Shown piece by piece: positions 1-18,172 of a stretch of 18,172 nt of DNA (positions are counted from its first letter, which is position 1; each line of letters opens with the position of its first letter). Under the pieces are notes generated by a model. The model was given only the letters and a program-made list of their open reading frames with translations, had not been told where the DNA came from and searched no databases. Source of the stretch: Chlamydiota bacterium (GTDB lineage Bacteria > Auribacterota > Tritonobacteria > UBA1439); contig JBAXOY010000060.1 in NCBI GenBank assembly GCA_037133055.1, forward strand, positions 1-18,172, given 5' to 3'. A program made the translations under genes and the position numbers.

Positions 1-15
1 CGGGCTACTTCAAAG

Positions 16-206: not shown

Positions 207-216
207 CAGTGCCTTC

Positions 217-245
217 TTGCCGCTCCCGCCGTGATGGGATAGAAT
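217..245 (+). promoter_or_regulatory. Putative sigma70 promoter of the lipoprotein/TPR operon
   Basis: TTGCCG (217-222), 17-bp spacer, TAGAAT (240-245), 12 nt before ATG 258; implies a very short leader. Confidence 0.5.
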
Positions 246-257
246 GGTGTCCGGCCA

Positions 258-3364: not shown

Positions 3365-3392
3365 ATCCCAAATCCCAAACCCCAAATCCCAA
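3363..3392. repeat. Heptamer tandem repeat (AAATCCC)x4
   Basis: AAATCCC AAATCCC AAACCCC AAATCCC AA starting at the stop codon of the TPR gene, in the gap between convergent genes. Confidence 0.85.
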
Positions 3393-3415
3393 AAGCATAG
3401 GTCCTGAAGATACAC

Positions 3416-4639
3416 TCACGCGCGCGCCAGGTCCGCAAGCCGATAACGGAACGGCGCCCGCACCAGCTCTTCGACGACGGGCAGATCAAGGCCGAGCGCC
3501 CGCGCCATCCGCACGATCTCCCAGGTGAGCTTCGTGTGCGAGATCCAGCGGTTGTCCGTGCAGATCGTCACCGGAACGGCGTCCGCGAGGAACACCCTTA
3601 TCGGATGCTCCGCGAGAGACCCGATATTGCCCGTGTGGATGTTGCTTGAGGGGCACACCTCCACGAGGATGTTCTCCTTCCGGAGCCTTGTTCTCAACGC
3701 GCGCTGCCGCGCGGAGATCAGTTTCACCCGCTTCGCGGTATAACGCCGGCCGCGCAGATCCTCCGTTCCGACAAGGCGCCCCGCGTCCAGCCCCGCCGCC
3801 AGGCCGTGCCCTATCCTCTTCGCCCCCAGCATGTCGATGGCGTCCTCGATCATGGCGATACCGTCTTCGATCGAGGCAAACGCCTCCCCCGCATGGTAGA
3901 CGACCGCGAGCCCCGCGTTCCGGGCGGACTCGAATGCCTCCGCGTGCTCCGCGATTGAGAAGCCGACCTCGTTCCCCGCGCTGTCGACCCCCTTGATCCT
4001 GCCCCGCAAGGACGGATCCTCGTTCGCCTCGAGGACATCCGCGACGATGCCCCGGACCACCTCCGCGTCGTAGTCCTTTACCAGCGAGAGCAACAGGACC
4101 GCATCGAGGTCGGGGTACCGATCCTTCGCGCGGTCGAGCCCTCGGGCAAGCGCCCGGATATAGGGCTTTATCTTTACGCTCCCGGTGAGCATTCGCGGGT
4201 TGAACCGGACCTCGAGATACCGGACCCCCTCGAGGCGGGCGTCCTCGCACACCTCGAAGACGACACGATCGAGCGCGTCCTCCGTGGCAAGCACGGTCTT
4301 CGGCAGCGAGTACGAGAGCATGTAGTCGGAAAGGCTTCCCCGGGCTTTCCGGTACTCGAGCAGGCGAGTGACCTCATCAAGACTCCCCCCGGAGATCCGC
4401 GGGGCGACCGGATACCCGAACCCCGAGTCGCAGAAGCTCCAGTCAAGGTCCGGCACGGTCCGGGCAAGGTCCCTCAGGGTGCCGGGACGCATCGATCCGG
4501 CGAGATGACAGTGAAGGTCCGCCTTGGGCATCGAAGCCACCGCGTCGAACACCCCCCTCCACCGCGCCTTCTCTTCGGGATTCATCCCCGCGCACAGCTT
4601 GCGGATAAACACCCGATCGCTCTCGTCGCCGTTTTTCAC
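3416..4639 (-). CDS. add: Adenosine/adenine deaminase family protein
   Basis: Motifs DLHCHLAGS, YLEVRF, DSAGNE, YHAGE, RIGHG, VCPSSN, ICTDN; start placed at GTG 4639 behind GGAGGGGGAG (ATG 4585 is an alternative). Confidence 0.85.
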   Translation of the reverse strand: MKNGDESDRVFIRKLCAGMNPEEKARWRGVFDAVASMPKADLHCHLAGSMRPGTLRDLARTVPDLDWSFCDSGFGYPVAPRISGGSLDEVTRLLEYRKARGSLSDYMLSYSLPKTVLATEDALDRVVFEVCEDARLEGVRYLEVRFNPRMLTGSVKIKPYIRALARGLDRAKDRYPDLDAVLLLSLVKDYDAEVVRGIVADVLEANEDPSLRGRIKGVDSAGNEVGFSIAEHAEAFESARNAGLAVVYHAGEAFASIEDGIAMIEDAIDMLGAKRIGHGLAAGLDAGRLVGTEDLRGRRYTAKRVKLISARQRALRTRLRKENILVEVCPSSNIHTGNIGSLAEHPIRVFLADAVPVTICTDNRWISHTKLTWEIVRMARALGLDLPVVEELVRAPFRYRLADLARA

Positions 4640-4682
4640 CGTGGCTGATCTCCCCCTCCGGCGCCGTACGCCGGGGCCAATC

Positions 4683-5762
4683 CTACCGGGCCGAGATGGG
4701 TATCGGAACGAAGCACAGCACGAGGACCCCCGCCGCCGCGCACGCGACCAGTCTTCTTCCGTTGTCAAGCGGCGTCACGTCGTCAAGCGGCGGCGCGTGG
4801 CCGGGCCCGAGGGCCAGGATGAGGAGCACCCATATCCACCATGGCCACCACGCGAACCCGAGCGCAAAAAGGACCGCGAGCGCACACCGCGCGACCAGCG
4901 CGTGCGCGCGCCCCGCGAACGCATACGCGATGTGGCCCCCGTCAAGCTGCCCGACGGGCATGAGGTTGAACGCGGTCACGAGCAGGCCCACCCACCCCGC
5001 GAATGCGACCGGGTGGAGGATGACGTCCTGCCCCTCCGCGATCCGTCCCTTGACGAGAAACGTCATCAGGCGGACGATGAGCGAATCGCCGAAATACTCC
5101 ACCTGACCCGTCCTGAGGAGGGGGCCGATATCCGCGACCTCGGAACTCGCAAGCCCCACGCCGAGCGCCACGAGGGCTACCAGGAAACCGCAGAGCGGCC
5201 CCGCGGCCCCGATATCGAGCAGGCTCTTCCTGTCGGGGATAAAGGATTTGGTCCTGATCACGGCACCGAGGGTCCCGATCGCGGTCGGCGCCGGGATAAA
5301 ATAGGGGAGCGTTGCCTTCACGCCGTGGAACGCCGCCATCAGGTAGTGACCGAACTCGTGGACGATAAGGATGGCCAGCAGACTTGCGGCGAACGGGATC
5401 CCCGCGGCGAAACGCTCCGGATGCGCGATAATGTCGACACCGGCATTGGCCGCGCCGACAACGAGCGTCGAACAGACGGTGAGCGCGAAGAGCGCGAGGT
5501 TGACCAGCGGATTCGACCGGGCCGCGGGGGCGTCCCGCACCACGCGCACCTCGTACTCTCCGCCGCGCCGTGAGACCAACGGGACGAACCCCATCATTCC
5601 CAGTCTTTCCCTGAGGACGGCGATGGACTGTCCCGGGGGAAGAAGGAACAGCCCGCGGAATACGATCCCGCGCCGGCTGAGAGCCGCATCACGGATGCTC
5701 ATGGTCTCCTCGACCAGCACCCGCAACCGGAGCGCGAGAAGCGTCAGGTCGTCGGTGTCCAT
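4683..5762 (-). CDS. Site-2 protease (peptidase M50) family membrane metalloprotease
   Basis: HEFGH zinc motif, IGAAGP, FNLMPVGQLDGGH, multiple TM segments; start at ATG 5762 (MDTDD). Confidence 0.92.
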   Translation of the reverse strand: MDTDDLTLLALRLRVLVEETMSIRDAALSRRGIVFRGLFLLPPGQSIAVLRERLGMMGFVPLVSRRGGEYEVRVVRDAPAARSNPLVNLALFALTVCSTLVVGAANAGVDIIAHPERFAAGIPFAASLLAILIVHEFGHYLMAAFHGVKATLPYFIPAPTAIGTLGAVIRTKSFIPDRKSLLDIGAAGPLCGFLVALVALGVGLASSEVADIGPLLRTGQVEYFGDSLIVRLMTFLVKGRIAEGQDVILHPVAFAGWVGLLVTAFNLMPVGQLDGGHIAYAFAGRAHALVARCALAVLFALGFAWWPWWIWVLLILALGPGHAPPLDDVTPLDNGRRLVACAAAGVLVLCFVPIPISAR

Positions 5763-5767
5763 CAATG

Positions 5768-5797
5768 AAATCCCAAATCCCAAATCCCAAATCCCAA
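5768..5797. repeat. Heptamer tandem repeat (AAATCCC)x4
   Basis: Four perfect AAATCCC units, with a single inverted GGGGATT at 5802-5808. Confidence 0.85.
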
Positions 5798-5841
5798 TGA
5801 CGGGGATTCAGAGATCCGGGGCAGGCGGCGGATGCGGGACA

Positions 5842-6477
5842 TCAGTCGCGGTCTTCGGGGCATTCCGCCCCGGCCTTGTACAGATACTTCTCGATCATCA
5901 TCAGCGCCTTCTCGATCGCCCGCGCCCTGTGGCTGATCCTGTTCTTGATGCTCGGGGAGAGTTCGGCGAAGGTCTTGTGGTACTCGATCGGCTGGAAGAG
6001 CGGATCATAGCCGAATCCCCCGCTCCCCCGGGGCTTCATCATGATGGTCCCCGCGCAATTCCCCTCGGCGATGTCGATTACCTTCTCGGGATTTGCGAGC
6101 GCGATGAAACACGCGAAGCGCGCCTGGCGCCTCCGCTCCGGGACATCGCGGAGCAGTGCAAGGAGCTTCTCGTTGTTTTCCTTGCCGGTCGCATGCTCGC
6201 CCGCGAAGCGGGCGGAATAGATCCCCGGGCGGCCGGCGAGGGCGTCGACCTCGATCCCGGAATCGTCCCCGAGCGCGAGCCTCCCCGTGGCCTTCGCCGC
6301 GAACAGGGCTTTTTTTTCGGCGTTCTCGCTGAAGGTTCTCCCGTTTTCGGGTACCGGCGGGAGACCGGGGAAGTCGGCAAGGCACAGCACGGAAAGATCG
6401 AGCCCGGAGTTCCGGAGCATCTCCCTGAACTCCCGCACCTTGTCCTTGTTGTTGGTCGCGAGCACAAGATCGTTCAC
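5842..6477 (-). CDS. rdgB: XTP/dITP diphosphatase (RdgB/HAM1)
   Basis: LATNNKDKVRE, ENAEKKA, DDSG, PGIYSARF, GFGYDPLF, KNRISHR; GTG start overlaps rph stop (GTGA). Confidence 0.95.
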   Translation of the reverse strand: MNDLVLATNNKDKVREFREMLRNSGLDLSVLCLADFPGLPPVPENGRTFSENAEKKALFAAKATGRLALGDDSGIEVDALAGRPGIYSARFAGEHATGKENNEKLLALLRDVPERRRQARFACFIALANPEKVIDIAEGNCAGTIMMKPRGSGGFGYDPLFQPIEYHKTFAELSPSIKNRISHRARAIEKALMMIEKYLYKAGAECPEDRD

Positions 6478-7205
6478 GGCCTCCCCCCGAACACGCTCTT
6501 CTGCGTCTCGATGAGCGCGGCGATGCCGGCGCGCGCCATGGCCGTCATGGAGGTCATTTCCTCGGACGTGAACGGCTCCGATTCGGCCGTGCCCTGTATC
6601 TCGATGAACCGCCCGCCCTCCGTCACGACGAGATTCATGTCCACCTGGGCCCGGCAATCCTCCTCGTAATTGAGGTCGAGGAGGAGCTCGCCGTTGACCT
6701 TGCCGACGCTCACCGCCGCGAGCGCCTCGCGCACGGGATTCCGCTCGATGAGCCCCTCGGCCGCCAGCTTCCCCATGGCGAGCTGGAGGGCGACGAAACT
6801 GCCCGTTACGGACGCGGTCCTTGTTCCCCCGTCCGCCTGCAGCACCTCGCAATCGATCCAGAGGGTGCGGGACCCGAGCTTCTCAAGGTCGACCACCGCC
6901 CTGAGGGCCCTTCCGATCATGCGCTGGATCTCATGCGTCCTGCCCCCGATTTTCCCGCGGGTGGCCTCCCGCACCATCCTCACGGGCGAGGAAAACGGCA
7001 TCATGGAGTACTCGCAGGTTATCCACCCGCCGGGCCTTTTCTGCTCCCTCATCCAGCGGGGCTGCACATTCTCCACAGAGGCCGCGCAGAGGATTTTCGT
7101 GTCGCCAAACTCGACCATGACGGAGCCGCTCGGGTACTTGACGAAATCCGGCGTGATCCTCACCGGCCTCAGCTCGTCGTTCCTCCGCCCGTCCCTCCTC
7201 TGCAT
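6474..7205 (-). CDS. rph: Ribonuclease PH
   Basis: RRDGRRNDELRPV, GRTHEIQRMIGRALR, QADGGTRTAS, DMNLV, EIQGTAE; start at ATG 7205. Confidence 0.96.
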   Translation of the reverse strand: MQRRDGRRNDELRPVRITPDFVKYPSGSVMVEFGDTKILCAASVENVQPRWMREQKRPGGWITCEYSMMPFSSPVRMVREATRGKIGGRTHEIQRMIGRALRAVVDLEKLGSRTLWIDCEVLQADGGTRTASVTGSFVALQLAMGKLAAEGLIERNPVREALAAVSVGKVNGELLLDLNYEEDCRAQVDMNLVVTEGGRFIEIQGTAESEPFTSEEMTSMTAMARAGIAALIETQKSVFGGRP

Positions 7206-7277
7206 ACCCGTCTCTCGATGTGCGTGTTCGTTGGTTTTTGCCGGTACCCAGCGACCAGAAACCAGTAACCGTAGTAA

Positions 7278-7354
<77 letters not shown>

Positions 7355-7661
7355 ACCCGACTCTTGTGCCATGCGGCGCGGCATGCGGCGGTCGCCGCCT
7401 GCATCTCAAAGGGGGGCACCGCTACGGCGAGGCGTGAAACGGCCGGAACCTCGCGATGAATAGTTGCTCGCACCCATCACCGGCCCACCCGCAGCGCGGG
7501 CATTGCGCGACTGCGGTGCCACACCCCCACGCTGCGGGTGGCCGCATCCGCGTCTTCCCGTCCGCCTGTTTACACCACGCCACGGCGCGGCATGCCGCGA
7601 AAAGATGGGGCGCTCCGTCGCGGATTCAAGAATTGCTGCGCGAGATGATCCTTCAGGCTCG

Positions 7662-7790
7662 CTATTCCTTCTTCAGGAAACTCGCGAGCGCGATGCTATC
7701 CAGGGAGATAAGGAAACAGAGCATCAGCAAGTCATTGGGCGCGTCGATCTTCCCGATAAGCCGCGCCAGAATAAAAAGGATCGTTCCCAT
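7662..7790 (-). CDS. Small hydrophobic protein, 42 aa (MGTILFILARLIGKIDAPNDLLMLCFLISLDSIALASFLKKE)
   Basis: Absent from the ORF track; strong AGGAGAGG SD immediately upstream, promoter-like motif upstream, two hydrophobic segments and KKE tail. Confidence 0.65.
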   Translation of the reverse strand: MGTILFILARLIGKIDAPNDLLMLCFLISLDSIALASFLKKE

Positions 7791-7840
7791 GTCCTCTCCT
7801 CTCTCGGCCTTGTCGGCCTGGTGGTGTAAATCCGGGTAAA

Positions 7841-7870
7841 GCTATACCACAACAGGAAGAATCCGGTCAA
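7841..7870 (-). promoter_or_regulatory. Putative sigma70 promoter for the sORF (possibly extending to tRNA-rph-rdgB)
   Basis: TTGACC-N18-TATAGC with extended -10 TG, preceded by an AT-rich tract. Confidence 0.5.
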
Positions 7871-7892
7871 TCGTAAAAAAATATCCGCCCTG

Positions 7893-7916
7893 CCCTTCGG
7901 CTGCGCTCAGGGTAAA
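7893..7916. repeat. REP-like half element CCCTTCGGCTGCGCTCAGGGTAAA
   Basis: Matches the CCTTCGAC-n4-GCTCAGG palindrome type I recall from many bacterial intergenic regions; CCCT/AGGG arms. Confidence 0.45.
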
Positions 7917-7924
7917 TTCGAGCC

Positions 7925-8268
7925 GGGATTCAGCGCTACACGCTTCAACGCCGGGACGCAGATAAACGCAGATCGTCAGGATTGACAGGATATACAAGGC
8001 GGAAAAAAGCGGCTGGATACCAAAATTGGACGCAGATTTCGCAGATGAACGCAGATGGGGGAACAGCCCAGGTCAAAGGTTCAAAACCCAAGGTTCACAA
8101 GTGCTTTTAGCTTTGGACCTTGAACTTTCAACCGTAGTCCGATCTGCGTGCTCTGCGTTCATCTGCGTCCCGAATGCCGTTTCCCTTTAGCCCTTTATGC
8201 CATGGCCTTATCTGCGTTCATCCTGACAATCTGCGTTCATCTGCGTGCTACGTTAACGCTGGATTCCC
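7925..8268. repeat. Nested multi-layer imperfect palindrome made of nonamer (ACGCAGATR) and heptamer (AAGGTTC-like) repeats
   Basis: Arm pairs: 7956-7994 with 8209-8246; 8028-8059 with 8139-8170; 8071-8100 with 8105-8133; outermost GGGATTCAGCG with CGCTGGATTCCC. Confidence 0.85.
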
Positions 8269-8306
8269 ATGTCACTGATCCATTCCCATCCGCGGGAAAA
8301 CTGTTC

Positions 8307-9401
8307 TCACGCGAGCTCGTTGAGAATCTCCACCCCCCGGCGCAGCGTTTCATCGGGCGCGGCGAACGAGAGCCTGAAGTGGGTGTCCCGCTCCGAAAAG
8401 ACCGAGCCGGGGACCAGGATGAGTTTCCTCCCGACCGCCGCATGGACGAACGCGGCCCCGCTTCCCCCCGGCGCCTCGGGGAAAAGGTAGAAGGCGCCCT
8501 CGGGCCGGATAAAGCGATACTTCCCCTGCAGCCCCCCGCACACCATGTCCCGCTTCTTCCGGTACGCGTCGATCGTAGCCCTCATGTCCACCCGGTAGGC
8601 CCCGATAACGCCGTGCTGGAGCACCGAGGGCGCGCAGATGAAAGAATACTGCTGGATCTTGATCATCTCGCGGAGTATCTCCCTCGGCCCCGCCGCATAG
8701 CCGACGCGCCACCCCGGCATTCCGAACGACTTCGAGTAGCCGCCGACGATCAGCGCATCGGGCGAAAACGCTCCCATGCTTTCGTGCGGGCGGTCGTAGG
8801 CGAAGAAATCATAGACCTCGTCCGAGAGGATGTGCGCCCCCGTCCGCGCCGCGATCGCGGCGATCTCACGGAGGCGGTCCCCGTGAAGGATCATCCCGGT
8901 CGGATTGGAGGGGCTGTTGAGGATGACGAGTGCCGCGCCCTTCCCGATGGCGCGCTCGAGCCGCTCGGGAGTGACCGTAAAATCAGGATAGGTGTCCAGA
9001 AAGACCGGCTCGGCGCCGACAAGACGGCAGAGGTGTTTATAGATGACGAAGTACGGGTCGGGGATGACCGCCCGGTCCCCGGGGTTGAGGAGCACGAGAA
9101 AGGCGAGCATTATGCCGCCCGCCGCGCCCGAGGTGACCATCACCTCTTCGGGGGAATATCCCTTTTCTTCCTCGAGATGGCGGCGGATCTCGGCGCGGAG
9201 CTCGTCGATCCCCTGGGTGAGCGTGTAGCGGTGGTGCCCCGCGCGGATGGCGCGGATCGCCGCCTCCTTGAGCGCGTCCGGGACATCGAAGTCCGGCTGG
9301 CCGATGCTCAGGTTGACGGGGTTTTCCATCTTCTGGGCGAGATCGAACGCATTCCGGATGCCGGAGGAGTCGATCTGCCGCATGCGGTCGGCGATGCGCA
9401 C
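8307..9401 (-). CDS. PLP-dependent class I/II aminotransferase (aspartate aminotransferase-like)
   Basis: NLSIGQPDF, YTLTQGIDELR, NSPSNPTG, LSDEVY, GYSKSFGMPGWRVGY, PEGAFY; GTG start at 9401 behind AGGAGA. Confidence 0.92.
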   Translation of the reverse strand: MRIADRMRQIDSSGIRNAFDLAQKMENPVNLSIGQPDFDVPDALKEAAIRAIRAGHHRYTLTQGIDELRAEIRRHLEEEKGYSPEEVMVTSGAAGGIMLAFLVLLNPGDRAVIPDPYFVIYKHLCRLVGAEPVFLDTYPDFTVTPERLERAIGKGAALVILNSPSNPTGMILHGDRLREIAAIAARTGAHILSDEVYDFFAYDRPHESMGAFSPDALIVGGYSKSFGMPGWRVGYAAGPREILREMIKIQQYSFICAPSVLQHGVIGAYRVDMRATIDAYRKKRDMVCGGLQGKYRFIRPEGAFYLFPEAPGGSGAAFVHAAVGRKLILVPGSVFSERDTHFRLSFAAPDETLRRGVEILNELA

Positions 9402-9447
9402 AGTATCTCCTATGGCTCTCTTCTTCTGCGCACTGGTTATGCTTTTT

Positions 9448-9490
9448 TCCCCTCCCCCTCCTGAAGGGGGAGGGTTAGGGTGGGGGTGAA
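9448..9490. repeat. G/C-tract REP-like element, copy 1
   Basis: CCCCTCCCCCTCCTGAAGGGGGAGGGTTAGGGTGGGGGTGAA; same family at 12181-12222 and, inverted, at 17968-18014. Confidence 0.8.
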
Positions 9491-9526
9491 ACACTAACCG
9501 TGAAACGCCCTTGCGCGCACACGCCC

Positions 9527-9919
9527 TCACGCCCCCACGAGCTGTACTTTTTCCTGTGGGTCCGTCCCGCTCTCCCTGTCGCTGAAGCAGACGATGAAGG
9601 TGTCCTTCTCCCCGATGTTGACAAACGCGTGCGCGATGCCCGGGGAGACAATGACCCGGACGCATTCCCCATTGTTGAACACGAACTCCTCGCGCTTCCC
9701 CTCCCGATCCTGGGCCAGGAGCTTGATCTCGCCGGAGAAGACGATGGTCTCGGTGGCGCCCGGGTGCCGGTGGTTGCCGCGGATTGCGCCGGGAGCCATG
9801 GTGGCCGCGTGCGTGTTCCGGAGCGTTCCGGACCCGAGAATCTCGGGGCCGAGCGGCTCGAACACCTTGCCGCGGGCGTCCTGGTGCATTGTCAGGCGTT
9901 CTATCGTCAGTCCCTTCAT
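9527..9919 (-). CDS. Cupin-domain protein (WxcM/sugar epimerase-isomerase-like)
   Basis: HQDARG.VFE, IRGNHRH...E, VSPGIAHAFVN cupin motifs; ATG 9919 behind GAGGGGAAGGA. Confidence 0.8.
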   Translation of the reverse strand: MKGLTIERLTMHQDARGKVFEPLGPEILGSGTLRNTHAATMAPGAIRGNHRHPGATETIVFSGEIKLLAQDREGKREEFVFNNGECVRVIVSPGIAHAFVNIGEKDTFIVCFSDRESGTDPQEKVQLVGA

Positions 9920-9964
9920 TCTCTGATCCTTCCCCTCGTTCCCGGGTTGTCGATTGCGCAAAAC

Positions 9965-10134
9965 GAAACGGCGAACGGGGCATCTTTTGCGTTCATTGAT
10001 CGCCGGTTCGCCGACACGCCGGTTCGCCGCTTCATGGCGAGTCACCCACTACGTATGAATCGGCGAATGGGCGAAACGGCGAGGGGGCGACTTCTGCATT
10101 CAATGATCGCCGACACGCCGTCTCGCCGGCTCAT
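9965..10134. repeat. Two tandem ~75-bp hairpin elements built from octamer repeats (GGCGAAAC / GTTCGCCG type)
   Basis: Copy 1 at 9965-10035, copy 2 at 10055-10134; loops CTTTTGCGTTCATTGATCGCCG versus CTTCTGCATTCAATGATCGCCG. Confidence 0.8.
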
Positions 10135-10136
10135 TT

Positions 10137-11030
10137 TTACATCGCCTCCAGCGCCCTGATTCTCTCCTCGATCGGGGGATGGGTCGAGAAAAGCCGGTTC
10201 ACCATCCCGCCGTACTCCTTGAGCGGATTGACGATATACATGTGCGCGGTGGCCTTGTTCGCGGCCTCGAGCGGGTCGGGGTCGGCGTCGAGCTTCCGGA
10301 GCGCGTCGGCGAGCCCCTTCGGGTAGCGCGTGAGCATCGCCCCGCTCGCGTCCGCCAGGAACTCCCGCTTCCGGGAGATCGCCAGTCGGACGAGCTGCGC
10401 GATGAGCGGGGCGAGGAGCGCCAGCAGTATGCCGACGATCATGAGAATCACCGCGGCCTGTCCGCCCCCGTCTTCGTCCCTGCGCCTCCGCCCGCCCCAG
10501 AAGTAACTCCGCATGATCCAGTCGCTCAGCAGCGTGACGACCCCCACCATCACCACGACGAGCGAACCGAGGAGGATATCGTAGTTTCCGATGTGCGAAA
10601 GCTCGTGTGCAATGACCCCCTCGAGCTCGAGGCGGTCCATCTTCTGAAGGAGGCCTGTGGTCACGCAGACGACCGCGTGCGCGGGGTTGCGCCCCGTGGC
10701 GAAGGCGTTCGGGGCGCTGTCCTCGATCACGTAGACCTTCGGGACGGGTATCCCGGCCGCGATCGCGAGCCCCCCGACGGCGTGGAAGAGGTGGGGAAAC
10801 TCCTCCTTCTCGAGCGGCCGCGCGCCGCTCATGGCGAGGACAATCCGGTCGCTCCAGTAGTAGCTCCCGAAGGTCCACACGAGGGCGATGACCATCGCGA
10901 GCACGACGCCGCCGTTCCCAATCGACGAGACCTGCCCGAACACCCAGCCCATCGCTGCGACAAAAACGATGAAGAGGATGCAGAGGATGACGGAGTTCCG
11001 CTTGTTTTTCGCAATCTGCTCGTAAAGCAT
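10137..11030 (-). CDS. htpX: Zinc metalloprotease HtpX (peptidase M48)
   Basis: PNAFATGR, HELSH, ISRKREFLAD, LFSTHPP; downstream of lemA. Confidence 0.95.
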   Translation of the reverse strand: MLYEQIAKNKRNSVILCILFIVFVAAMGWVFGQVSSIGNGGVVLAMVIALVWTFGSYYWSDRIVLAMSGARPLEKEEFPHLFHAVGGLAIAAGIPVPKVYVIEDSAPNAFATGRNPAHAVVCVTTGLLQKMDRLELEGVIAHELSHIGNYDILLGSLVVVMVGVVTLLSDWIMRSYFWGGRRRRDEDGGGQAAVILMIVGILLALLAPLIAQLVRLAISRKREFLADASGAMLTRYPKGLADALRKLDADPDPLEAANKATAHMYIVNPLKEYGGMVNRLFSTHPPIEERIRALEAM

Positions 11031-11071
11031 AAGTAAGCCGTAAGTTGTAAGCTGTAAGCCGTAAGCTGTAA
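11031..11071. repeat. Heptamer array (GTAAGCY)x5, downstream arm of the four-helix-bundle cassette
   Basis: GTAAGCC GTAAGTT GTAAGCT GTAAGCC GTAAGCT GTA. Confidence 0.9.
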
Positions 11072-11100
11072 AACGTGAAATCAGAGGATAACCTAACCTA

Positions 11101-11364
11101 TTAAGCGCCGCTCAAGGTCTTCTGGAAACCGTATAGCATCCGTCCAACTTCATCCGCTAATACCGACAACCTCCCATAGTCACCCTTCCCTACATAAGTA
11201 TGCCCCTCGACAATGTTCGTGGCCACCGATGCCGCCGACCTTCTTAGCTGTGCCGTTAACCCGTACTTCTCCTCAATTGGAAATCTTTTTGTGACCTTAT
11301 ATATCTCCAGCACCAATTCATGCGCTTTCTGCCACACCTTTATATCCCTAAACGTGTAAGCCAT
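11101..11364 (-). CDS. Four-helix-bundle protein (23S rRNA IVS protein-like, TIGR02436), apparently internally deleted
   Basis: FRDIKVWQKAHELVLEIYKVTKRFP.EEKYGLTAQLRRSAASVATNIVEG signature; only 87 aa, lacking the usual F..FL.IA.GS..E helix; alternative ATG 11382. Confidence 0.85.
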   Translation of the reverse strand: MAYTFRDIKVWQKAHELVLEIYKVTKRFPIEEKYGLTAQLRRSAASVATNIVEGHTYVGKGDYGRLSVLADEVGRMLYGFQKTLSGA

Positions 11365-11390
11365 TTTCGCCCTCTTGTGCATCTCATTTG

Positions 11391-11414
11391 GCTTACAGCT
11401 TATAGCTTACGGCT
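11391..11414. repeat. Heptamer array, upstream inverted arm of the four-helix-bundle cassette
   Basis: GCTTACA GCTTATA GCTTACG GCT, reverse complement of the 11031-11071 units. Confidence 0.9.
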
Positions 11415-11418
11415 GGTG

Positions 11419-11973
11419 TCAGAACTTCACCTTCACCGGCTCCCGCGCCGCCTCCTCCCCCGTCTGGAAATATTCCTTCTCCGGGAAGTTGAACATCCCC
11501 GCGATGATGCTGGAGGGGAATGTCTCGCGTGTGGTGTCATAGGTCATCACCGTGTCGTTGTAGAACTGGCGGGAGTAGGCGATCTTGCTCTCCGTTCCCG
11601 AGAGCTCCTCCTGGAGCATCAGGAAGTTCTGGTTCGCCTTGAGCTCGGGATAGTTCTCCGCCACGGCGAAGAGGGACTTGAGCGCCCCGGTGAGCACATT
11701 GTCCGCCTGCCCCTGGGCCATGGCGCCCGAGGCGTTGATCGCCTTCGCGCGCGCCTCGGTGACCTTCTGGAACACCTCCTTCTCGTGGGCCGCGTATCCC
11801 TTCACCGTTTCCACGAGGTTCGGGATCAGGTCGTACCGGCGCCTGAGCTGCACGTCGATCTGCGACCATGCGTTCTCGATCCTGTTCCGCAGGCGCACGA
11901 GCCGGTTGTACGCCACGATGACGTACAGCACGATGACCGCGAGAAGAACAAGGATGATCCATCCGATCGACAT
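11419..11973 (-). CDS. lemA: LemA family protein
   Basis: N-terminal [53 protein letters not shown]. Confidence 0.96.
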
Positions 11974-12011
11974 GGCGAGCCTCCTTTTGCCGAGGGTCTA
12001 TTTACTGCCAC

Positions 12012-12040
12012 ATTCTACCATGCCCCGGCATGGTTGCAGA
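12012..12040 (-). promoter_or_regulatory. Putative lemA-htpX promoter with palindromic spacer
   Basis: TG-G-TAGAAT extended -10 (12012-12020), weak -35 (CTGCAA); perfect ACCATGCC-cc-GGCATGGT dyad at 12017-12034. Confidence 0.5.
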
Positions 12041-12062
12041 TTCTATTTCCGTGAGGCCCCGG

Positions 12063-12086
12063 GAGGCCCTGATCACCGAGGGCCTC
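12063..12086. terminator. GC-rich hairpin GAGGCCCT-N8-AGGGCCTC downstream of the hydro-lyase gene
   Basis: Perfect 8-bp stem but no clear U-tract. Confidence 0.3.
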
Positions 12087-12112
12087 GTCAGTGCCCGATG
12101 GCTCTCATATAT

Positions 12113-12222
12113 TCCCCCTCCCCCCTTGAGGGATATCTCCCTTCTCTCCCCCTCCCCTCTTGAGGGATATCTCCCTTCTCTCCCCCTCCCCCCTTGAGGG
12201 GGAGGGTCAGGGTGGGGGGGTG
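12113..12222. repeat. G/C-tract REP-like element, copy 2, preceded by two 34-bp tandem partial duplicates
   Basis: Units at 12113-12146 and 12147-12180 (TCCCCCTCCCC[C/T]CTTGAGGGATATCTCCCTTCTC), then the full element at 12181-12222. Confidence 0.85.
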
Positions 12223-12252
12223 CAAGTATCCAAGAGGGATCACATCCCCTGC

Positions 12253-12786
12253 CTATTTCCTCTGGTACAAATCCTCTCCCCTGCAATCGGTCGCAACAAT
12301 CGCCGGGAATTTCTCCACCGTGAGCTCCGTGATCGCCTCGGCGCCCAGGTCGGCATAGGCGACCGGCTTCGCCGCCTTGACGCATTTCGCAAGCAGCGCC
12401 CCCGCCCCGCCCACGGCGGCAAAGTACACCGCCCCGTGTTTCTTCATCGCCTCGATCACTTCCTTGCTCCTCGGCCCCTTCCCGATCATCCCCTTCAGAC
12501 CGAGCTCCATCGTCTTCGGGGCGAACGCGTCCATCCGGTAGCTCGTGGTGGGGCCGACGGACCCGATCGGCTTCCCCGGGGGCGCGGGCGACGGCCCGGC
12601 GTAGTAAAAGATCTGCCCCTTCAACTCGACCGGCGGCTTTTCGCCCCTCGCCACCGTCTCCGTGAGCCGCTGGTGCGCCGCATCGCGAGCCGTGTAGATC
12701 GTGCCCGTGATGAGCACGCTGTCCCCGGCCTTGAGTTTAGCCACAACCTCATCCGTGAGCGGTGTCCGTATCTCGATTGCCGGCAT
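12253..12786 (-). CDS. Fe-S hydro-lyase (class I fumarate hydratase / tartrate dehydratase) beta subunit
   Basis: TGTIYTARDAAH, YYAGP, GPTTSYRMD, GMIGKG, DLGAEAI; GAAAGGAGG SD. Confidence 0.93.
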   Translation of the reverse strand: MPAIEIRTPLTDEVVAKLKAGDSVLITGTIYTARDAAHQRLTETVARGEKPPVELKGQIFYYAGPSPAPPGKPIGSVGPTTSYRMDAFAPKTMELGLKGMIGKGPRSKEVIEAMKKHGAVYFAAVGGAGALLAKCVKAAKPVAYADLGAEAITELTVEKFPAIVATDCRGEDLYQRK

Positions 12787-12798
12787 GCCTGCCTCCTT

Positions 12799-13020
12799 TC
12801 ATCCTGCATCGTGCGGTTTTAAGATTTCGTTTGCGAAGATCACGCGAAGAACGGCCTGCCGCTGGTGCAGCCACAAGGATTCATACTTCCCCTCCGGAGC
12901 TTCCACCTCCAGATGCAAGAGATAATCCCGCACCTGGTCGAGCACCGCCGGGGACCGAAACGATCCGGCCACCCAGTTCTGATATGCCTTGAGTGTTGCG
13001 CCATAGAACGAGTTGAACAT
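12799..13020 (-). pseudogene. Probable N-terminal stub of a type III-like restriction (Res) DEAD/DEAH helicase
   Basis: 73 aa with AAGGAG SD; LWLHQRQAVLRVIFANEIL resembles the Q-motif region preceding Walker A, but the ORF stops there; lies downstream of methyltransferase remnants. Confidence 0.45.
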
Positions 13021-13222
13021 CAGCCGCTATCTCCTTGCCGCAGGCCCTGTCGGGAACGTGTCGCAACGTCGTGGCATTATGTAATGCTGATCATGTTTCA
13101 TACGACCCGTGTGGCTTTCTGGCTTTTCTCAATCTTGAACATCACTTATTGAACGAAATCGCTCTTGTTTATCACTTTTATGCATAAACTGATGCACAAA
13201 TCGCCTTGTTGCTCACGAGTAA

Positions 13223-13409
13223 TCATCTAAAAGCATCGCGTCCTTCCACAATGTTCAGGAGTTCGCGAAAAGCCAGGACCGCCGGTCGCCGGCCACTGGA
13301 TTCACCGCGCCAAAGCAGCGCTGGTTGGCCCGATGAGGGGAATCAGGAGTTTCCAGTCGATCTCTTGCGGTGGAAACTTGCCGTAATGGTATTGAATGGG
13401 TTGTGCCAT
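13223..13409 (-). pseudogene. Fic/DOC family gene reduced to N- and C-terminal stubs
   Basis: 13409-13302: MAQPIQYHYGKFPPQEIDWKLLIPLIGPTSAALAR*; different frame 13306-13223: GESSGRRPAVLAFRELLNIVEGRDAFR*; both match termini I recognise from ~370-aa Fic proteins; AAGGAG SD. Confidence 0.75.
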
Positions 13410-13415
13410 TGCAAA

Positions 13416-14012
13416 CTACTCCTTCCCCGCCAGTCGCCGGTTCACCGCGTCCAGATCGAACCGCTCGGGATCGTAGCCGCCTACCAGCCATTCGAGCAGT
13501 TCCTTCTGCTCCTCGGTCTTCTTCGGCGCCTTCAGCGCCTCCAGTATGTCATAGTAGCCGGGGAAACTGCCGCAGTCTTCCGGCGGACACGCCCGCGCAC
13601 CGGCCAGACACGCAGGATACTTTGCCTGTAGATCAATCGGGAGCATCTTCTCAACCATCACTTCATGCTCCCAACTGTCGCCGAAGTCGTACTCGTACAC
13701 GAACTTCTGCTTCGCGCGCGTGACCACGCGACTCAGGAACACGGTTTCTTCGTTTTCCATGTCCATCTCGCCCATCTCTAATGCTTGCTGACTGGTGTAG
13801 TGAACCTCGCCGAACCGAAAGGCGTGCATATGGTAGTCCTGCCATCCCATCGTCACCTGTATGACATCGTGTAACTGCCCGAGAGTGAAGTTGTCCGGCA
13901 ACACCACTCGCCGCCAGATCTGCGGCCGGATATTCCGCAACGCCACCTTGAACTGAATTGCCTTTTCCGCCGGCGGAACCCACATCGCTCTCAAACTTTT
14001 TCTCTTTGCCAT
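13416..14012 (-). CDS. Plasmid pRiA4b ORF-3 family protein
   Basis: IWRRVVLP..TLGQLHDVIQVTMGWQDYHMHAF, YEYDFGDSWEHEV, GARACPPEDCG; ATG 14012 behind AGGAGA. Confidence 0.92.
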   Translation of the reverse strand: MAKRKSLRAMWVPPAEKAIQFKVALRNIRPQIWRRVVLPDNFTLGQLHDVIQVTMGWQDYHMHAFRFGEVHYTSQQALEMGEMDMENEETVFLSRVVTRAKQKFVYEYDFGDSWEHEVMVEKMLPIDLQAKYPACLAGARACPPEDCGSFPGYYDILEALKAPKKTEEQKELLEWLVGGYDPERFDLDAVNRRLAGKE

Positions 14013-14063
14013 TGCGGTCTCTCCTACCTGGCATCTTCGCGTCATTGCGCGAGTCTCTTTGTC

Positions 14064-14318
14064 CTATCCCACCCTCAACTTCATCACTTTCATTCCTTCG
14101 CCGCCGAGATCGTCCTGCACCCGGCAGGCAAACGTGATCTCGGTTCCAAGCTCAACGTGCTTGAATGTGTATTCGACGGTCATATCTCCCTCGAATCCGC
14201 TTTCTCCCCTGCCCTTCTTCTCCTTCCGGCATAGCTGGCAACCCTGCGTCGTCGAAAAAATACCCTCGCGGAAATCGAGGTCCCATTGCACGTTGACGAT
14301 TTTGCCGCCGGTATTCGT
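14064..14318 (-). pseudogene. C-terminal stub of a site-specific DNA methyltransferase (Mod-like, PKD-like tail)
   Basis: TNTGGKIVNVQWDLDFREGIFSTTQG...VEYTF...FACRVQDDLGGEG; no start codon or SD for the full stub, in-frame stop shortly upstream; family by motif recall. Confidence 0.6.
14300..14312. repeat. Direct repeat at the downstream boundary of the helicase cassette
   Basis: TTTTGCCGCCGGT(ATTCG); 12/13 identical to 17639-17651. Confidence 0.6.
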
Positions 14319-14394
14319 CTGGTTGTCGCGTTGCCGTCATCCTGCTCTGCGAGACCTCCAGTCACAACGGGGGCTGCTGATTGCCCTCTCTGTC

Positions 14395-17300
14395 CTACGC
14401 CGGGTCTCCAGGTACAACTTTTTCACCTGGACAATCTCTTGGGTGCTTCGGGCATTGCCAGACTTCACCCCTTCCACGCCTCACATGCCGGTACTTGGTG
14501 CGACCGTCCACCTTGCACACAGGAGCACTTTTGAACGGCGGTCTTTCGTCGATGTTACGCAAGTAACCTTCGCAATCGGGATTGGTACAGCCAACTTTCA
14601 TTGCTTGGAAATCCCATGTGCCATGCTGCTGGCGCTGATTTACAACCTGTACTGGCCAACCGCAATCTTGAAGAGGGCAGATACGGGGCGTGCCATCCTC
14701 GTGGATTGCAGCTTGGCGGATATGCTTTGCCTGCATCAATTGAAGGCAAAGCTTTGCATATTGAGGAGCGTGAATCCTATGGACTTCCTCGGAACGACCG
14801 CGATTGCTCGACCAATTCATGCTCCCGGTGTAAATCACTTGCTCATCTATTATGACATCCTTCCCATGGACTCCGCTTGCTGACACAACAACCGCCCCTA
14901 ATTCCCGCAGGTTCTTGATAACTTTTTCGACATAGCTTCGGTTTTCTGCCTCAGAAAGTGGTGGCGTGACTAACGTCACTTTAACGCCACGGGCAAGCGC
15001 TGCTCTGATTATGGGCTGAATTCTCGGCCAGCGGTACTCTCCAAAGTAAGGAGCGAGACCAAAAATGGTGTCTGACGCCGCGTTAAGGTCTTTGGTGAAT
15101 CGTTCGAAAAATGAAGTTTCGTCTAAGTGCTCAAACGTGTAACCAGTGTCCCCGCGCGGGACGTTCCATCCAGTCTCGGGAATGTATTGGTCAAACACTC
15201 GCCGGAAGCGTTCGAGTTTGACCAACTCAAGTGCTGAAATCAGATCAGCTTGGTTTGTAAGAAATTGCCACATCTGGCCGAGACCACTTACGGGTTTTGC
15301 ATGTTTATTTAGCCACTCTGAGGAACCGATGAAAATGAATTTATTCTTCGCCCGCGTAACTGCCACGTTCAGGTCGCGTTTGACATCACACGCATCTCGT
15401 GGATTGCACAGGCGGGCTGCGTAGTAAGGTTCATCGAGCACTGAATCAAATATAATTAAATCAGCTTCGCCTCCTTGGAAGGTGTGGACTGTTCCTGCTG
15501 CTACCCAGTCATGCAAATCTAAATCGGCAATCAGCTTGGTAAGAAGTCGTCGTTGAGCCGCAAACGGCGTGACGATGCCGATTGGTTGCGGGCTACCGTC
15601 AGGAGGCTTTTGGAGTTTCGCAGCAGCCATCGCCGCAATTTCTACAGCCACCGTAGCCGAGCAAAAATTGAAGCGACTTAGACTGCCTGGCTGTTTCCCG
15701 CTCCAGCAATGCAGATCGGCGGTGTCCACTATTATGAGAGGATTTTCCGGAAGGAACTCTAACCAATCGGGCGATTTTCCTTTGGGTCTCTCTGGACTGT
15801 CATCCAAGCCACCCACTGCAGTATAAACGAGATGCCGAGCGACGTCTGCGATTTCTGTCCGCATCCGTCGTTGAGTTCTAAGCTGGGGGAGAACATGACG
15901 ATAATCGGGATTAGGCTTCAGGTCTTTAGCTACTCCAGCAAGGTGGTAGGTGTCTGTGCCTAGCCTTGCATTACCGAGCGGCGTGTCACCTCGGACAATG
16001 GGTGGAAGTTGTAGGAAGTCACCAACGAGGATTACACGCCGTGTCGCGCGCCCTGCTGCCAAGAAAATCAGTGGAGGCAGCGCCATCGAAATCTCATCGA
16101 CAATGACGGCATCAAAGCTTTGTCCTTCAAGCTGTTTTCCAACATAGCTCTTGGTCAACGTGCAGAAAATCGCACGGGCCTCAGTGATTACCTTCTGCTC
16201 CAATTGCGAGATTTCGTCCTGAAGCGCACGTATCTTTTGCTCAAGGGTCTCAAGTTCCAAAGCTAGTTGTGAAAGTTCTTGCTCTATCATTTGCCGAGCT
16301 GGGCACTTGGCACAAACGGTTTGTTGGTGTATCAGCGCGACTTCAATCTCACTGGTGAGTCGTTGCGCCTTCGCAATTTCCTGTGCAGACAATCCAAGGG
16401 CCATTTCTGCTCTTTGAAGTTGCGCTTCGCTGTCTTGGAGCGCCTGTAGCGCGCGCGCGGTTTTTGCCGCGCGTCGAAACCAAGCGCGCTGCGCCCGTTC
16501 AAGCTCCGCACGCCGCTGCTGTAAAAGGAACTTGCAACTCGTGATCGCTACCTCAGCTTCTTTTCGCTTTGCCTCCTGCAGCTCAATGAGGACACGCACC
16601 TCCTGAAGACGATTGGACAATTCGCTAAGACGATCCCACTCCGAAATGACAGCGAGGCATTGACTGCGCCGGTCGGCCAGCGGCTTCGCTTTCCTCTCGA
16701 GGTCCAAGATTGTGTCGACCAGTTTTCGTCCTTTCGTTTCCACGACCGCGTCAAGTCGAACGCTCGGAGGAATCTTCTTATCGGCAGTCATCCCGATCCT
16801 TAAAACCTTGCCGTCATGGACTGCCGAATGCCCGGCCAGCGGTCCTTCCTTGTCCTTCTCGCATTTTACGGCCTCGTAAAGGGCTTGATCAACTGCCGCA
16901 CGAGTGTGACTAGAAACAAGAACGCGCTCGCCAGCTTCGACGAGTGCCGTGACAAGGTGGGCAATCGTATAAGTTTTTCCCGTGCCCGGCGGCCCCCAGA
17001 TATACGTCAGTGTGGAACCGCAGGCTTGTTCGGCAACCCGGCGGGGTTGGCCGTTGAATTTTACTAGAGTGGACGTGGCTTGCAGGGTGGCGAATCCCAC
17101 GTTGGCTTTAGCTGGGTGAAACGCCACTATTGCCAAGGGGCTCACAAGTGTAGGCTTTTGGGCTGTCTCATCTAGAACCAGCGCAAGCTTACGGAGTAAA
17201 GCAGTGTCATCGATTATAAGCATTGCTCGATGAATCCCTGGTGAGAGCGGTGCCGTGCCTTTGACGCAAAGGTCAATGCGGTCAGCCTGTTGACCGATCA

Positions 17301-17574
17301 CTGTCACTGCATATTCATCGCTTGCGGTCTTGAGTCTTCCAGTAGCCTCTTCTGAAATTCGTATACCGTCCGCTATGATAAATTGGAAGATGGCCTGGGT
17401 CTGGCTCCTCTTCTCGATCAGTTTTCCCGCGAGAACTTCGTAATTCTGTGAGCCGCCGTCCTTTTCCAGGGCGACAAGCTCGGCACGAACACCCTCGGCG
17501 AACCATGCTGCGAGTGTATTCGCGTCCGTAGGTGGATGATCCGTACTCAGGTTAGCTGCCATCTTTGCTCCCAT
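14395..17574 (-). CDS. SF1 (Upf1/DNA2-like, AAA_11/AAA_12) helicase with coiled-coil insertion, PLD-family nuclease domain and C-terminal Cys-rich zinc ribbons
   Basis: WGPPGTGKT, VIVDEISM, VGDFLQLPP, QRRM, VTPFAAQ, TVHTFQGGE, NVAVTRAK; HGKDVIID (HxKx4D) plus TGSMNW; CPLQDC, CTNPDC, CPKHPRDC; alternative start 17562. Confidence 0.93.
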   Translation of the reverse strand: MGAKMAANLSTDHPPTDANTLAAWFAEGVRAELVALEKDGGSQNYEVLAGKLIEKRSQTQAIFQFIIADGIRISEEATGRLKTASDEYAVTVIGQQADRIDLCVKGTAPLSPGIHRAMLIIDDTALLRKLALVLDETAQKPTLVSPLAIVAFHPAKANVGFATLQATSTLVKFNGQPRRVAEQACGSTLTYIWGPPGTGKTYTIAHLVTALVEAGERVLVSSHTRAAVDQALYEAVKCEKDKEGPLAGHSAVHDGKVLRIGMTADKKIPPSVRLDAVVETKGRKLVDTILDLERKAKPLADRRSQCLAVISEWDRLSELSNRLQEVRVLIELQEAKRKEAEVAITSCKFLLQQRRAELERAQRAWFRRAAKTARALQALQDSEAQLQRAEMALGLSAQEIAKAQRLTSEIEVALIHQQTVCAKCPARQMIEQELSQLALELETLEQKIRALQDEISQLEQKVITEARAIFCTLTKSYVGKQLEGQSFDAVIVDEISMALPPLIFLAAGRATRRVILVGDFLQLPPIVRGDTPLGNARLGTDTYHLAGVAKDLKPNPDYRHVLPQLRTQRRMRTEIADVARHLVYTAVGGLDDSPERPKGKSPDWLEFLPENPLIIVDTADLHCWSGKQPGSLSRFNFCSATVAVEIAAMAAAKLQKPPDGSPQPIGIVTPFAAQRRLLTKLIADLDLHDWVAAGTVHTFQGGEADLIIFDSVLDEPYYAARLCNPRDACDVKRDLNVAVTRAKNKFIFIGSSEWLNKHAKPVSGLGQMWQFLTNQADLISALELVKLERFRRVFDQYIPETGWNVPRGDTGYTFEHLDETSFFERFTKDLNAASDTIFGLAPYFGEYRWPRIQPIIRAALARGVKVTLVTPPLSEAENRSYVEKVIKNLRELGAVVVSASGVHGKDVIIDEQVIYTGSMNWSSNRGRSEEVHRIHAPQYAKLCLQLMQAKHIRQAAIHEDGTPRICPLQDCGWPVQVVNQRQQHGTWDFQAMKVGCTNPDCEGYLRNIDERPPFKSAPVCKVDGRTKYRHVRRGRGEVWQCPKHPRDCPGEKVVPGDPA

Positions 17575-17618
17575 TACCCAATCGGGAATCAGAGCCCGAG
17601 TGTCTCAGAAGAACGCTT

Positions 17619-17846
17619 CTAGTCACATTCGTACCGCTTTTTGACGCCGGTTTCGACCGTGTCCACCAGTTGGAACGGCAATTCGATGCGCGGGTAGTGT
17701 TGTTCGAAGCGCCGTTCATGGTCGTAGCCCAGAGGTTCCTCCGCCACCGGCACATGCCCGAACCGCGCCGGGATTTTGAAGAATGCCTTCTGCTCGGGCA
17801 ATTGAATTTGCCCCTGCGACAGATTGTTCCGTGATGCCGTGCTCAT
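17619..17846 (-). pseudogene. N-terminal stub of a site-specific DNA methyltransferase (Mod-like)
   Basis: 75-aa ORF with AAGGGG SD; GHVPV..EPLGYD...YPRIELPFQLVDTV resembles the leader preceding the GDNL/DPPF core in one Mod family, but the core is absent. Confidence 0.55.
17639..17651. repeat. Direct repeat at the upstream boundary of the helicase cassette
   Basis: TTTTGACGCCGGT(TTCG); 12/13 identical to 14300-14312. Confidence 0.6.
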
Positions 17847-17967
17847 TCGGTTTCCCCTTTTGGGTTCACATCATTCTCTATGTCAGATGTGAGAATTGCA
17901 GGAAGATTATAGTGCACTATGCTGCGGGTTACTTCTCGTTTCGTAAGGGGGTACTTACAGTGGATGC

Positions 17968-18014
17968 TTTCACCCCCCACCCCAACCCTCCCCCTCAAGG
18001 GGGGAGGGGAAAAA
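17968..18014. repeat. G/C-tract REP-like element, copy 3 (inverted relative to copies 1 and 2)
   Basis: TTTCACCCCCCACCCCAACCCTCCCCCTCAAGGGGGGAGGGGAAAA. Confidence 0.8.
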
Positions 18015-18040
18015 GGGTATGAGCCACCTATAAGTAAGAG

Positions 18041-18139
18041 ATGGGGTTTGGCCATCTCCTCGACGAGGATTCGTTGATCCAGCTTGCGCCTGTTTTCTTT
18101 GCCCATCCACGTCAGCTCTAGCCTTTGTTTATTACTCAT
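18041..18139 (-). pseudogene. N-terminal stub of a type III R-M Mod methyltransferase
   Basis: MSNKQRLELTWMGKENRRKLDQRILVEE matches the widespread KLELTWIGKE.RPKLEPRILLED Mod N-terminus; the ORF then runs into the REP element with no catalytic motifs. Confidence 0.75.
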
Positions 18140-18172
18140 CGTTCCATTTCGATGCGTGACAAAGGACGGTCA

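Follow-up and report, generated by a model that had tools for sequence, protein, structure and literature searches.

The methyltransferase gene of a type III-like restriction-modification (R-M) system has been overwritten by a defence-type gene in the DNA analysed here, at a hotspot shared by the family. The DNA is an 18,172-nt stretch (hereafter the window) that forms a complete contig of the 2.99-Mb genome of a Chlamydiota bacterium (GTDB lineage Bacteria; Auribacterota; Tritonobacteria; UBA1439; assembly GCA_037133055.1, contig JBAXOY010000060.1, positions 1 to 18,172). Only the two ends of the methyltransferase gene (mod) remain, and between them stands an intact gene for a helicase joined to a phospholipase D (PLD) nuclease. 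The overwrite is real and well resolved, and it is not the cassette bounded by 13-bp direct repeats that a preliminary description of this DNA had proposed. The arrangement is confirmed as a genuine structure. A single contig from sequencing run X1, possibly the source of the assembly, covers 12500-18011 with 0 differences, and run X3, from another study, yields contigs over both edges (14213-15241 and 17398-18135), also with 0 differences; misassembly was rejected on these grounds. This comparison drew on contigs from 4 of the 21 listed runs, a level at which rare variants drop out. The features at the centre of the analysis are as follows.

17628..17846, minus strand: N-terminal stub of a type III-like N6/N4 methyltransferase, approximately residues 1-78 of the intact protein; the open reading frame (ORF) ends at 17619; up to 97% identity to PF01555 proteins of 650-750 aa.
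14064..14319, minus strand: C-terminal stub of the same methyltransferase family, in decay, with the final 82-84 residues; close members are 70-85% identical to it.
14320..17627, minus strand: foreign piece of ~3.3 kb, replacing ~1.6-1.75 kb of the middle of mod; GC content at third codon positions 0.52, versus 0.70-0.73 in the stubs and 0.86 in fumB.
14395..17574, minus strand: intact gene of 1059 aa for an Upf1-like superfamily 1 helicase with a C-terminal PLD nuclease, of Mokosh type II-like architecture; possible start at 17562.
17639..17651, minus strand: first copy of the 13-bp repeat, made up of native ETG[VI]K codons; homology continues for 11 nt beyond it.
14300..14312, minus strand: second copy of the 13-bp repeat, made up of native TGGK codons; the retained C-terminal stub begins 7 nt before it.
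17627..17632, minus strand: left copy of the word ACGAAT; 5 bp are native and the last base is possibly derived from the cargo.
14313..14318, minus strand: right copy of ACGAAT, with ACG where intact genes have ATG (7 of 8 aligned intact genes; the distant L026 deviates).

The stubs are the two ends of one methyltransferase

A search with the N-terminal stub matched 82 proteins among 88 candidates (size range 133-2000 aa), and one with the C-terminal stub matched 80 among 110 (159-2000 aa). Both stubs matched 73 of 105 proteins, of which 72 are N6/N4 methylases of 602-748 aa (PF01555) and one is a 147-aa relic. These searches bear out the earlier assignment of the stubs to the N- and C-termini of one Mod-like family whose catalytic middle has been lost. 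The relic, P0082, has the length of the product predicted for an empty site, but this is a coincidence; it breaks at residues 51, 124-146 and 703. The intact relatives contain PF01555, have DPPF before FxGGG (motif IV ahead of motif I) and lie upstream of a Res-type helicase, which places them in the beta class. The catalytic motifs of a beta-class mod are absent from the window's stubs. At conserved columns of the alignment the N-terminal stub has 0 changes in 41, and the C-terminal stub has 4 in 48, a number that 2 of 58 intact proteins equal or exceed.

Twenty-one mod loci were compared, comprising 8 close intact loci, 5 distant full-length ones, 1 with a frameshift, 1 cut by the end of its contig and 6 that are truncated or hollow. 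At the 8 close intact loci mod is followed by a Res-type helicase (ResIII and REase_III matches on the intact partner), and in the loci that were checked a separate TnsA-like nuclease follows res (by Pfam in L016, with similar ORFs in L017 and L026). Because a Res-type helicase and a separate TnsA-like nuclease stand behind the intact mods, we regard the system as type III-like with a split Res. The interval between mod and res (L016-L026) is a cargo slot, which holds differing genes in 7 of the 8 intact loci and is empty in one. Its contents include a radical SAM pair, AAA_16 plus Schlafen, and Ppl-like, HEC-01-like, DUF3800 and pRiA4b genes. In the window both the slot and the beginning of the partner can still be recognised.

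13416..14045, minus strand: pRiA4b ORF3-like gene (PF07929), the native cargo behind the split mod; the end of mod and pRiA4b are colinear with intact L021, 74% over 929 nt.
12799..13020, minus strand: first 73 codons of the partner Res-like helicase; 49-81% identity to the res starts behind the 8 intact mods.

The stubs are left-overs that were probably spared for the expression signals of the operon and for the useful cargo downstream. A scan for promoters and terminators returned 3, with 3.1 expected by chance.

The cargo is an intact helicase-PLD gene

The foreign piece holds one ORF longer than 100 aa, the helicase, and no other mobile element. The protein has the Pfam domains AAA_11, AAA_12 and PLDc_2, with Dna2 and Upf1 as its relatives in the PDB, and its best PADLOC matches are to MkoA (9e-57) and MkoC (E 2e-38, best stretch 821-1106 of 1136, to a profile with no stated cut-off). 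Walker A (at 194), DEIS (493) and HxKx4Dx6GSxN (903) are all intact. Among 8000 scored candidates there were 244 homologs; the HKD motif is present in 117 of 119 and Walker A in 112 of 119. From its domains the cargo is classed as a defence-type gene, with a putative anti-phage function. At the homologous loci (L037-L086) the helicase is a free-standing gene with varied neighbours, often housekeeping genes. Close homologs have in common a promoter-like leader of ~60 nt, degraded in the window, and they diverge ~6 nt after the stop codon. Because the homologs share the leader and diverge just past the stop, the gene appears to move as a minimal unit, without arms derived from mod. Neither the split-mod family nor its res was found near the helicase at any of 51 homolog loci, 16 of which extend at least 2 kb on both sides. 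A plasmid search gave 46 records, none covering 80% of the query and all less than 60% identical.

Native sequence lies inside both 13-bp repeats

The preliminary description had pointed to two 13-mers on the minus strand, ACCGGCGTCAAAA (17639-17651) and ACCGGCGGCAAAA (14300-14312), as the boundaries of the cassette and as sites at which cargo is swapped. The measurements on which this was based hold. The two match at 12 of 13 positions, the helicase ORF lies between them, and their spacing of 3339 bp is a multiple of 3; deletion of the intervening segment produces a single open frame of 147 aa. The boundaries themselves are elsewhere. DNA homology to intact genes extends to 17628/17629 in five loci, 11 nt beyond the left repeat, and resumes at 14319 in six loci, 7 nt ahead of the right one, so that the edges lie inside the repeats. 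Both 13-mers encode native T-G-x-K residues. Native sequence remains on the inner side of each, an outcome not expected from a crossover inside the 13-mers or from their having been duplicated during insertion, and the repeats were rejected as target duplication and as crossover site alike.

At the equivalent two places in the 8 intact genes 4-11 of the 13 positions are alike, and each of these genes holds 1-4 pairs of the quality seen in the window. A 13-mer pair like the window's arose in 6.1% of 1000 shuffles with windows of 300 x 350 nt and in 1.0% with windows of 125 x 145 nt. The empty junction predicted at the 13-mers did not appear. There were 0 matches in the JGI metagenome collection, which was scanned with an exact degenerate pattern that diverged codons would escape; 0 hybrid proteins of the 147-aa junction type were present among the proteins collected; and no joint at the 13-mers was seen in the contigs of the four runs, from which rare variants drop out. 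Other cargo between the same two sites was found neither in the 21 loci nor in the genome searches described below. The 13-bp repeats are bystanders of the overwrite.

A short word recurs at the true edges

At the edges defined by homology an exact 6-bp word, ACGAAT, is present on both sides. The copies are 3314 bp apart, which is not a multiple of 3. The ACG of the right copy replaces methionine with threonine, and the alignment column affected is one in which at least 90% of 58 proteins agree. When random replacement was simulated (40,000 trials), edge words of at least 5, 6 and 7 bp appeared in 4.8%, 1.5% and 0.5% of trials, respectively, so that the window's word carries a simulated chance of 1.5%. 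The pattern is the one that a target duplication of 5-6 bp, joined to a deletion between the word and the native ATGAA, would leave. No empty junction at the 6-bp word was present at any of the 118 loci collected.

Hollow alleles with other breakpoints

Four alleles keep both ends of mod. In the window the protein is retained to residue 78 and resumes at 654; the corresponding limits are ~30 and 670 in G347 and ~12 and 704 in G005, and L031 breaks at residue 51, contains 124-146 and resumes at 703. The edges of the last three therefore differ from those of the window. G347 was found by a search of 301 genomes with the C-terminal stub (3 matches) and was used as an independent test. There (L107 6565-7411, G347:C105), mod runs to about residue 30, is followed by ~600 bp of foreign DNA and continues from about residue 670. 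The 7-bp word AAGATTC of the N side recurs at the right edge, where intact genes have GGCAT[TC] in 7 of 7 cases (0.5% chance). We also considered ligation mediated by a restriction site, with both edges cut at one site, and this is ruled out for G347, where the native C side does not contain the word. In L031 the filler is 39 nt long and a 5-bp word of the N side is repeated at the right edge (4.8% chance). The edge-word signature is accordingly present in 3 of 3 hollow alleles that contain filler (the window, G347 and L031), in three lineages. In G005 (L090 5956-6094, G005:C29) the hollow allele is empty, with ~12 codons joined directly to residues 704-736.

The G347 filler contains a foreign ORF of 185 aa, downstream of a Fic gene. 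It had no match in Pfam or among plasmids, and Atlas scores below 0.9 included a weak lead to DUF3320. Our impression is that the two ends of a larger gene may have been joined to give this ORF. A separate observation concerns the hollow alleles of G005 and L031 (L031 6725-7089), whose genomes are distant: in each of them mod resumes near residue 703/704, and an AAA_21 ATPase gene and a DUF4276-type (HEC-01-like) gene come next.

Relics that keep only the N-terminus stop near residues 36, 45, 68, 74-85 and 111, and short database proteins depart from the family at residues 42 to 229, some of these being frameshifts or contig ends. Further genome searches matched 6 of 301 genomes (all long open frames), 2 of 79 (G000, which is the genome of the window, and G005), 3 of 401, 2 of 33 and 2 of 241. 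None of these searches revealed the same stub pair with other cargo, and those of 33 and 241 genomes yielded no new hollow allele. The C-terminal stub was not found in the genomes of L025, L029, L035 and L036, and 13 pattern matches in viral contigs gave 0 confirmed cases. Of the alleles that the preliminary description had anticipated in related genomes, intact, empty-hollow and filled-hollow forms exist, but the exchange of cargo between the same stubs was seen in none. Another truncated copy of mod, with a type IIG-like R-M gene behind it, contains ~80 nt of small repeat-like insertions (L020 8230-8350).

A variable defence site between fumA and fumB

The split gene lies between the genes for the two subunits of fumarate hydratase. 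Three further features bear on this site.

12253..12786, minus strand: fumarate hydratase beta subunit (fumB), the downstream anchor; the alpha subunit is on contig C138.
17812..17932, minus strand: upstream segment together with the start of the split mod (12 codons); the identity is 83% over 121 nt to the same locus in G005 and 86% over 66 nt to the adjoining C138.
18053..18139, minus strand: a separate relic, 29 codons from the start of a canonical type III mod gene of another family than the split mod; PADLOC MTase_III residues 1-29, E 3.7e-6.

Contig C138 overlaps the end of the window by 55 bp and carries the gene for the alpha subunit (fumA). The fumA-fumB gap of this genome is therefore ~7.3 kb long (window 12253-18172 plus L089, which is G000:C138 1-2844), and it is filled with starts and ends of genes. 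In addition to the split mod with its helicase, pRiA4b ORF3 and the res start, these include a DUF2130 gene, a second split-mod start, to which the end of a canonical type III mod and the start of a DUF1016 gene are fused, and two type III mod starts. Both anchors were found in 6 of 7 relatives from the family, with gaps of 58, 83, 170, ~2100, 3600 and 9500 bp; three are nearly empty (58-170 bp) and three are filled (2.1-9.5 kb). The seventh, G001 (80% complete), lacks the pair of anchors. The gap of G007 contains an intact type III R-M system, to whose mod the relic at 18053..18139 is 73% identical over 33 aa, and the gap of G005 contains the empty hollow allele of the split mod with pRiA4b and the ATPase-DUF4276 pair. 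The gap is a family-wide variable defence site. No ORF recognisable as an integrase or transposase is present among the genes of this island, in agreement with the preliminary description.

Several joints within the island coincide with short common words. The second split-mod start (L089 557-627 on C138, ~0.9 kb upstream) is fused at a common word of ~10 bp, and the res start joins the ribosome-binding site of fumB at one of 4-5 bp. The island is a patchwork built by short-homology recombination. The frame upstream of the mod start (17846-17932) and its counterpart in G005 may each encode a fragment of a RhuM-type protein. Broken frames at 13200-13420 may represent the start of a Fic-family gene; a 25-aa piece of them had no match in Pfam.

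How the split gene may have arisen

The account that we favour, and which we consider somewhat better than an even bet, combines an insertion that involved no recombinase and duplicated a short target with a microhomology deletion, at an R-M hotspot in decay. In the fumA-fumB gap, a type III-like system with the order mod-cargo-res would have been inactivated and overwritten. The lone helicase-PLD gene would have entered the 5' part of mod by illegitimate recombination without a recombinase, duplicating a target word of 5-6 bp, and the middle of mod would have been lost by a microhomology deletion between the target word and the nearly identical ATGAA in the 3' part. These two steps could have taken place in either order, or both could reflect one template-switch event. 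A broader proposal is that this represents a recurrent "overwrite" route in R-M loci: foreign DNA would be copied into the 5' part of mod without a recombinase, a word of 5-9 bp would be duplicated, and in the same event a slip of the replication or repair machinery from the right copy to a microhomology in the 3' part would destroy the methylase, so that the ends on the promoter side and on the cargo side are kept and the newcomer takes over the operon. Although the three filler-bearing alleles suggest this generalisation, we hold it only tentatively and think it unlikely as it stands.

A number of observations weigh against the insertion-plus-deletion account. The edges were placed by eye from relatives that are 81-89% identical, and the edge word was spotted post hoc in the window. 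The first statistic was stricter and scored the window 0 and G347 7; the window received 0 because its right word begins one base inside the edge, and the tolerance was widened afterwards for the simulation figures given above. The ACG at the right edge may be a point mutation, since the C-terminal stub is decaying and has 3 other changes at its 48 conserved columns. There are also hints that breakpoints are not arbitrary. Protein P0080 departs from the family after KKRYE, as the window does (a comparison of protein only), and two joints in run X10 start at 14129, one leading to 17634 across a run of unknown letters and the other, also ambiguous, to 17710. Either P0080 or the X10 joint at 17634 could mean that the left breakpoint is recurrent and, as G005 and L031 both resume near residue 703/704, preferred breakpoints are possible. 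Within the species itself, no allele predating the insertion turned up. Finally, both edges lie within 25 nt of a pair that matches at 12 of 13 positions, for which the chance in an intact gene is ~0.15-0.5%. This closeness of repeats and edges exceeds what chance would usually give, yet it was picked post hoc, and coincidence is the only explanation that we can offer.

Three other histories were weighed against the same evidence. Two related mod cassettes might have been stacked with the helicase between them, independent deletions then leaving just the start of one and the end of the other. The split-mod start does occur again on C138, ~0.9 kb upstream, a variously filled cargo slot behind mod is a trait of the family, and the C-terminal stub looks more decayed than the N-terminal one (4/48 versus 0/41, numbers too small for significance). 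Stacking gives no reason, however, for an identical word at both edges in the window, in G347 and in L031, and the absence of the split-mod family from the surroundings of all 51 helicase homologs also argues against it; we regard it as an unlikely history. A transposon or integrative element might instead have brought the helicase with a duplication of 5-9 bp and later lost its transposase and ends, the middle of mod being deleted subsequently. The cargo starts with TGT, as Tn7-type ends do, and six tyrosine-recombinase matches exist elsewhere in the genome, none of them on the window contig (C60) or on C138. Target duplications shorter than 10 bp are typical of DNA transposons, according to PMC2853133. 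Against a decayed element, no terminal inverted repeat is evident at the edges, nor was one present among the 25 longest pairs listed; the non-coding stretches on either side of the ORF measure only ~55 and 75 nt; the homologs diverge right after the stop codon; and no transposase was recognised among the scanned neighbours of the helicase homologs. This origin appears improbable to us.

The model of the preliminary description treats the hollow mod as a permanent landing pad, with the 13-bp repeats as the places where exchangeable cargo recombines. It has in its favour that the repeats exist, keep the reading frame and lie improbably close to the two edges, that hollow alleles with both ends recur (G000, G005, G347 and L031), and that flanking identities of 8-117 bp drive exchange of target recognition domains (TRDs) in type III mod genes (PMC3467074). 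The native sequence inside both repeats, the likeness of 4-11 of 13 positions at the same places in intact genes, the different edges of the three other hollow alleles and the missing empty junction all speak against it. As regards the position of the crossover the model is largely refuted, and as a whole it seems to us highly improbable. The insertion coupled to a deletion remains our preferred reading of the locus.

Relation to known systems

Furuta, Abe and Kobayashi (2010, PMC2853133) describe R-M genes that were replaced or deleted at one locus with short remnants, such as a 125-bp ORF in Xanthomonas, and target-duplicating insertions with no mobile element, one of which has its repeat inside an M gene. 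The window resembles these cases in the substitution of an R-M gene with short remnants and in an insert that is free of other mobile elements. It differs in that their duplications are long (more than 30 bp) and leave the target otherwise whole, whereas here the word is 5-6 bp in the window and 7 bp in G347, below the 30 bp that define their class, ~1.7 kb of the target was lost and the cargo is not an R-M gene. Furuta and Kobayashi (2012, PMC3467074) report that the middle of beta-class mod genes is exchanged at identities of 8-117 bp, and that mod at their locus 4 was substituted by a hypothetical gene or a type II system. Such TRD swaps retain the catalytic motifs and a working enzyme, unlike the present case, in which the motifs are lost and a whole foreign gene lies inside. 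Illegitimate crossing-over at 1-3 bp has also been described (PMC3031569). In the literature searched we found no account of a short duplicated edge word coupled to loss of the middle of a methylase; the supplements of PMC2853133 may hold similar junctions.

Variable defence content between conserved anchors, with empty sites in relatives, is likewise characteristic of the E. coli immigration control region (ICR; PMC12707154) and of the minimal mobile elements of Neisseria (PMC3787668), and neither the ICR nor the site described here has a mobilising gene at its anchor. The anchors differ in that here they are two subunits of one enzyme, fumA and fumB. Homologous recombination at the anchors is the mark of both systems; our comparison comprises one genome per species. 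The intact members of this mod family, whose mod-res slot is occupied by different genes (Ppl-like, HEC-01-like, Schlafen or none), are like the loci of Payne et al. (10.1101/2024.01.29.577857). In that study the cargo lies between intact genes and pseudogenes are excluded, whereas in the window it lies inside a destroyed gene. Mokosh type II, finally, consists of one gene, whose product has an Upf1-like helicase at its N-terminus and a PLD nuclease at its C-terminus (Millman et al., 10.1101/2022.05.11.491447; 10.1101/2022.12.12.520048). The cargo shares this single-gene architecture with its motifs intact, as judged from sequence, and differs from Mokosh type II as described there in its partial coverage of the MkoC profile, an additional long insertion in the helicase and a Cys-rich tail.

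Other features of the window

Palindromes like repetitive extragenic palindromic (REP) elements, with many copies in the genome, occur at several places.

9445-9491, 12113-12219 and 17968-18014 (17973..18009), no strand assigned: REP-like palindromes; a tandem array of 34-bp units occupies 12113-12214.

A gene for a 93-aa four-helix-bundle protein (TIGR02436, about half of the profile) lies at 11036-11414 between 25-bp inverted repeats and is apparently internally deleted. The minus strand also has a tRNA-Arg(CCG) gene at 7278-7354; it is 5 kb away from the island and is not the island's anchor.

Significance

This locus bears on how defence genes enter hotspots that lack an integrase: it preserves the footprint that one defence gene left in overwriting another, clean and mapped in full. 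It also marks the fumA-fumB gap as a family-wide defence site and identifies the cargo slot of this mod family as a source of candidate systems. Substitution of R-M genes was already known; the edge-word signature in three lineages is the lead worth following. If the edge word holds in a larger set, it would provide a signature that can be searched for genome-wide and a testable mechanism for the turnover of defence genes without a transposase.

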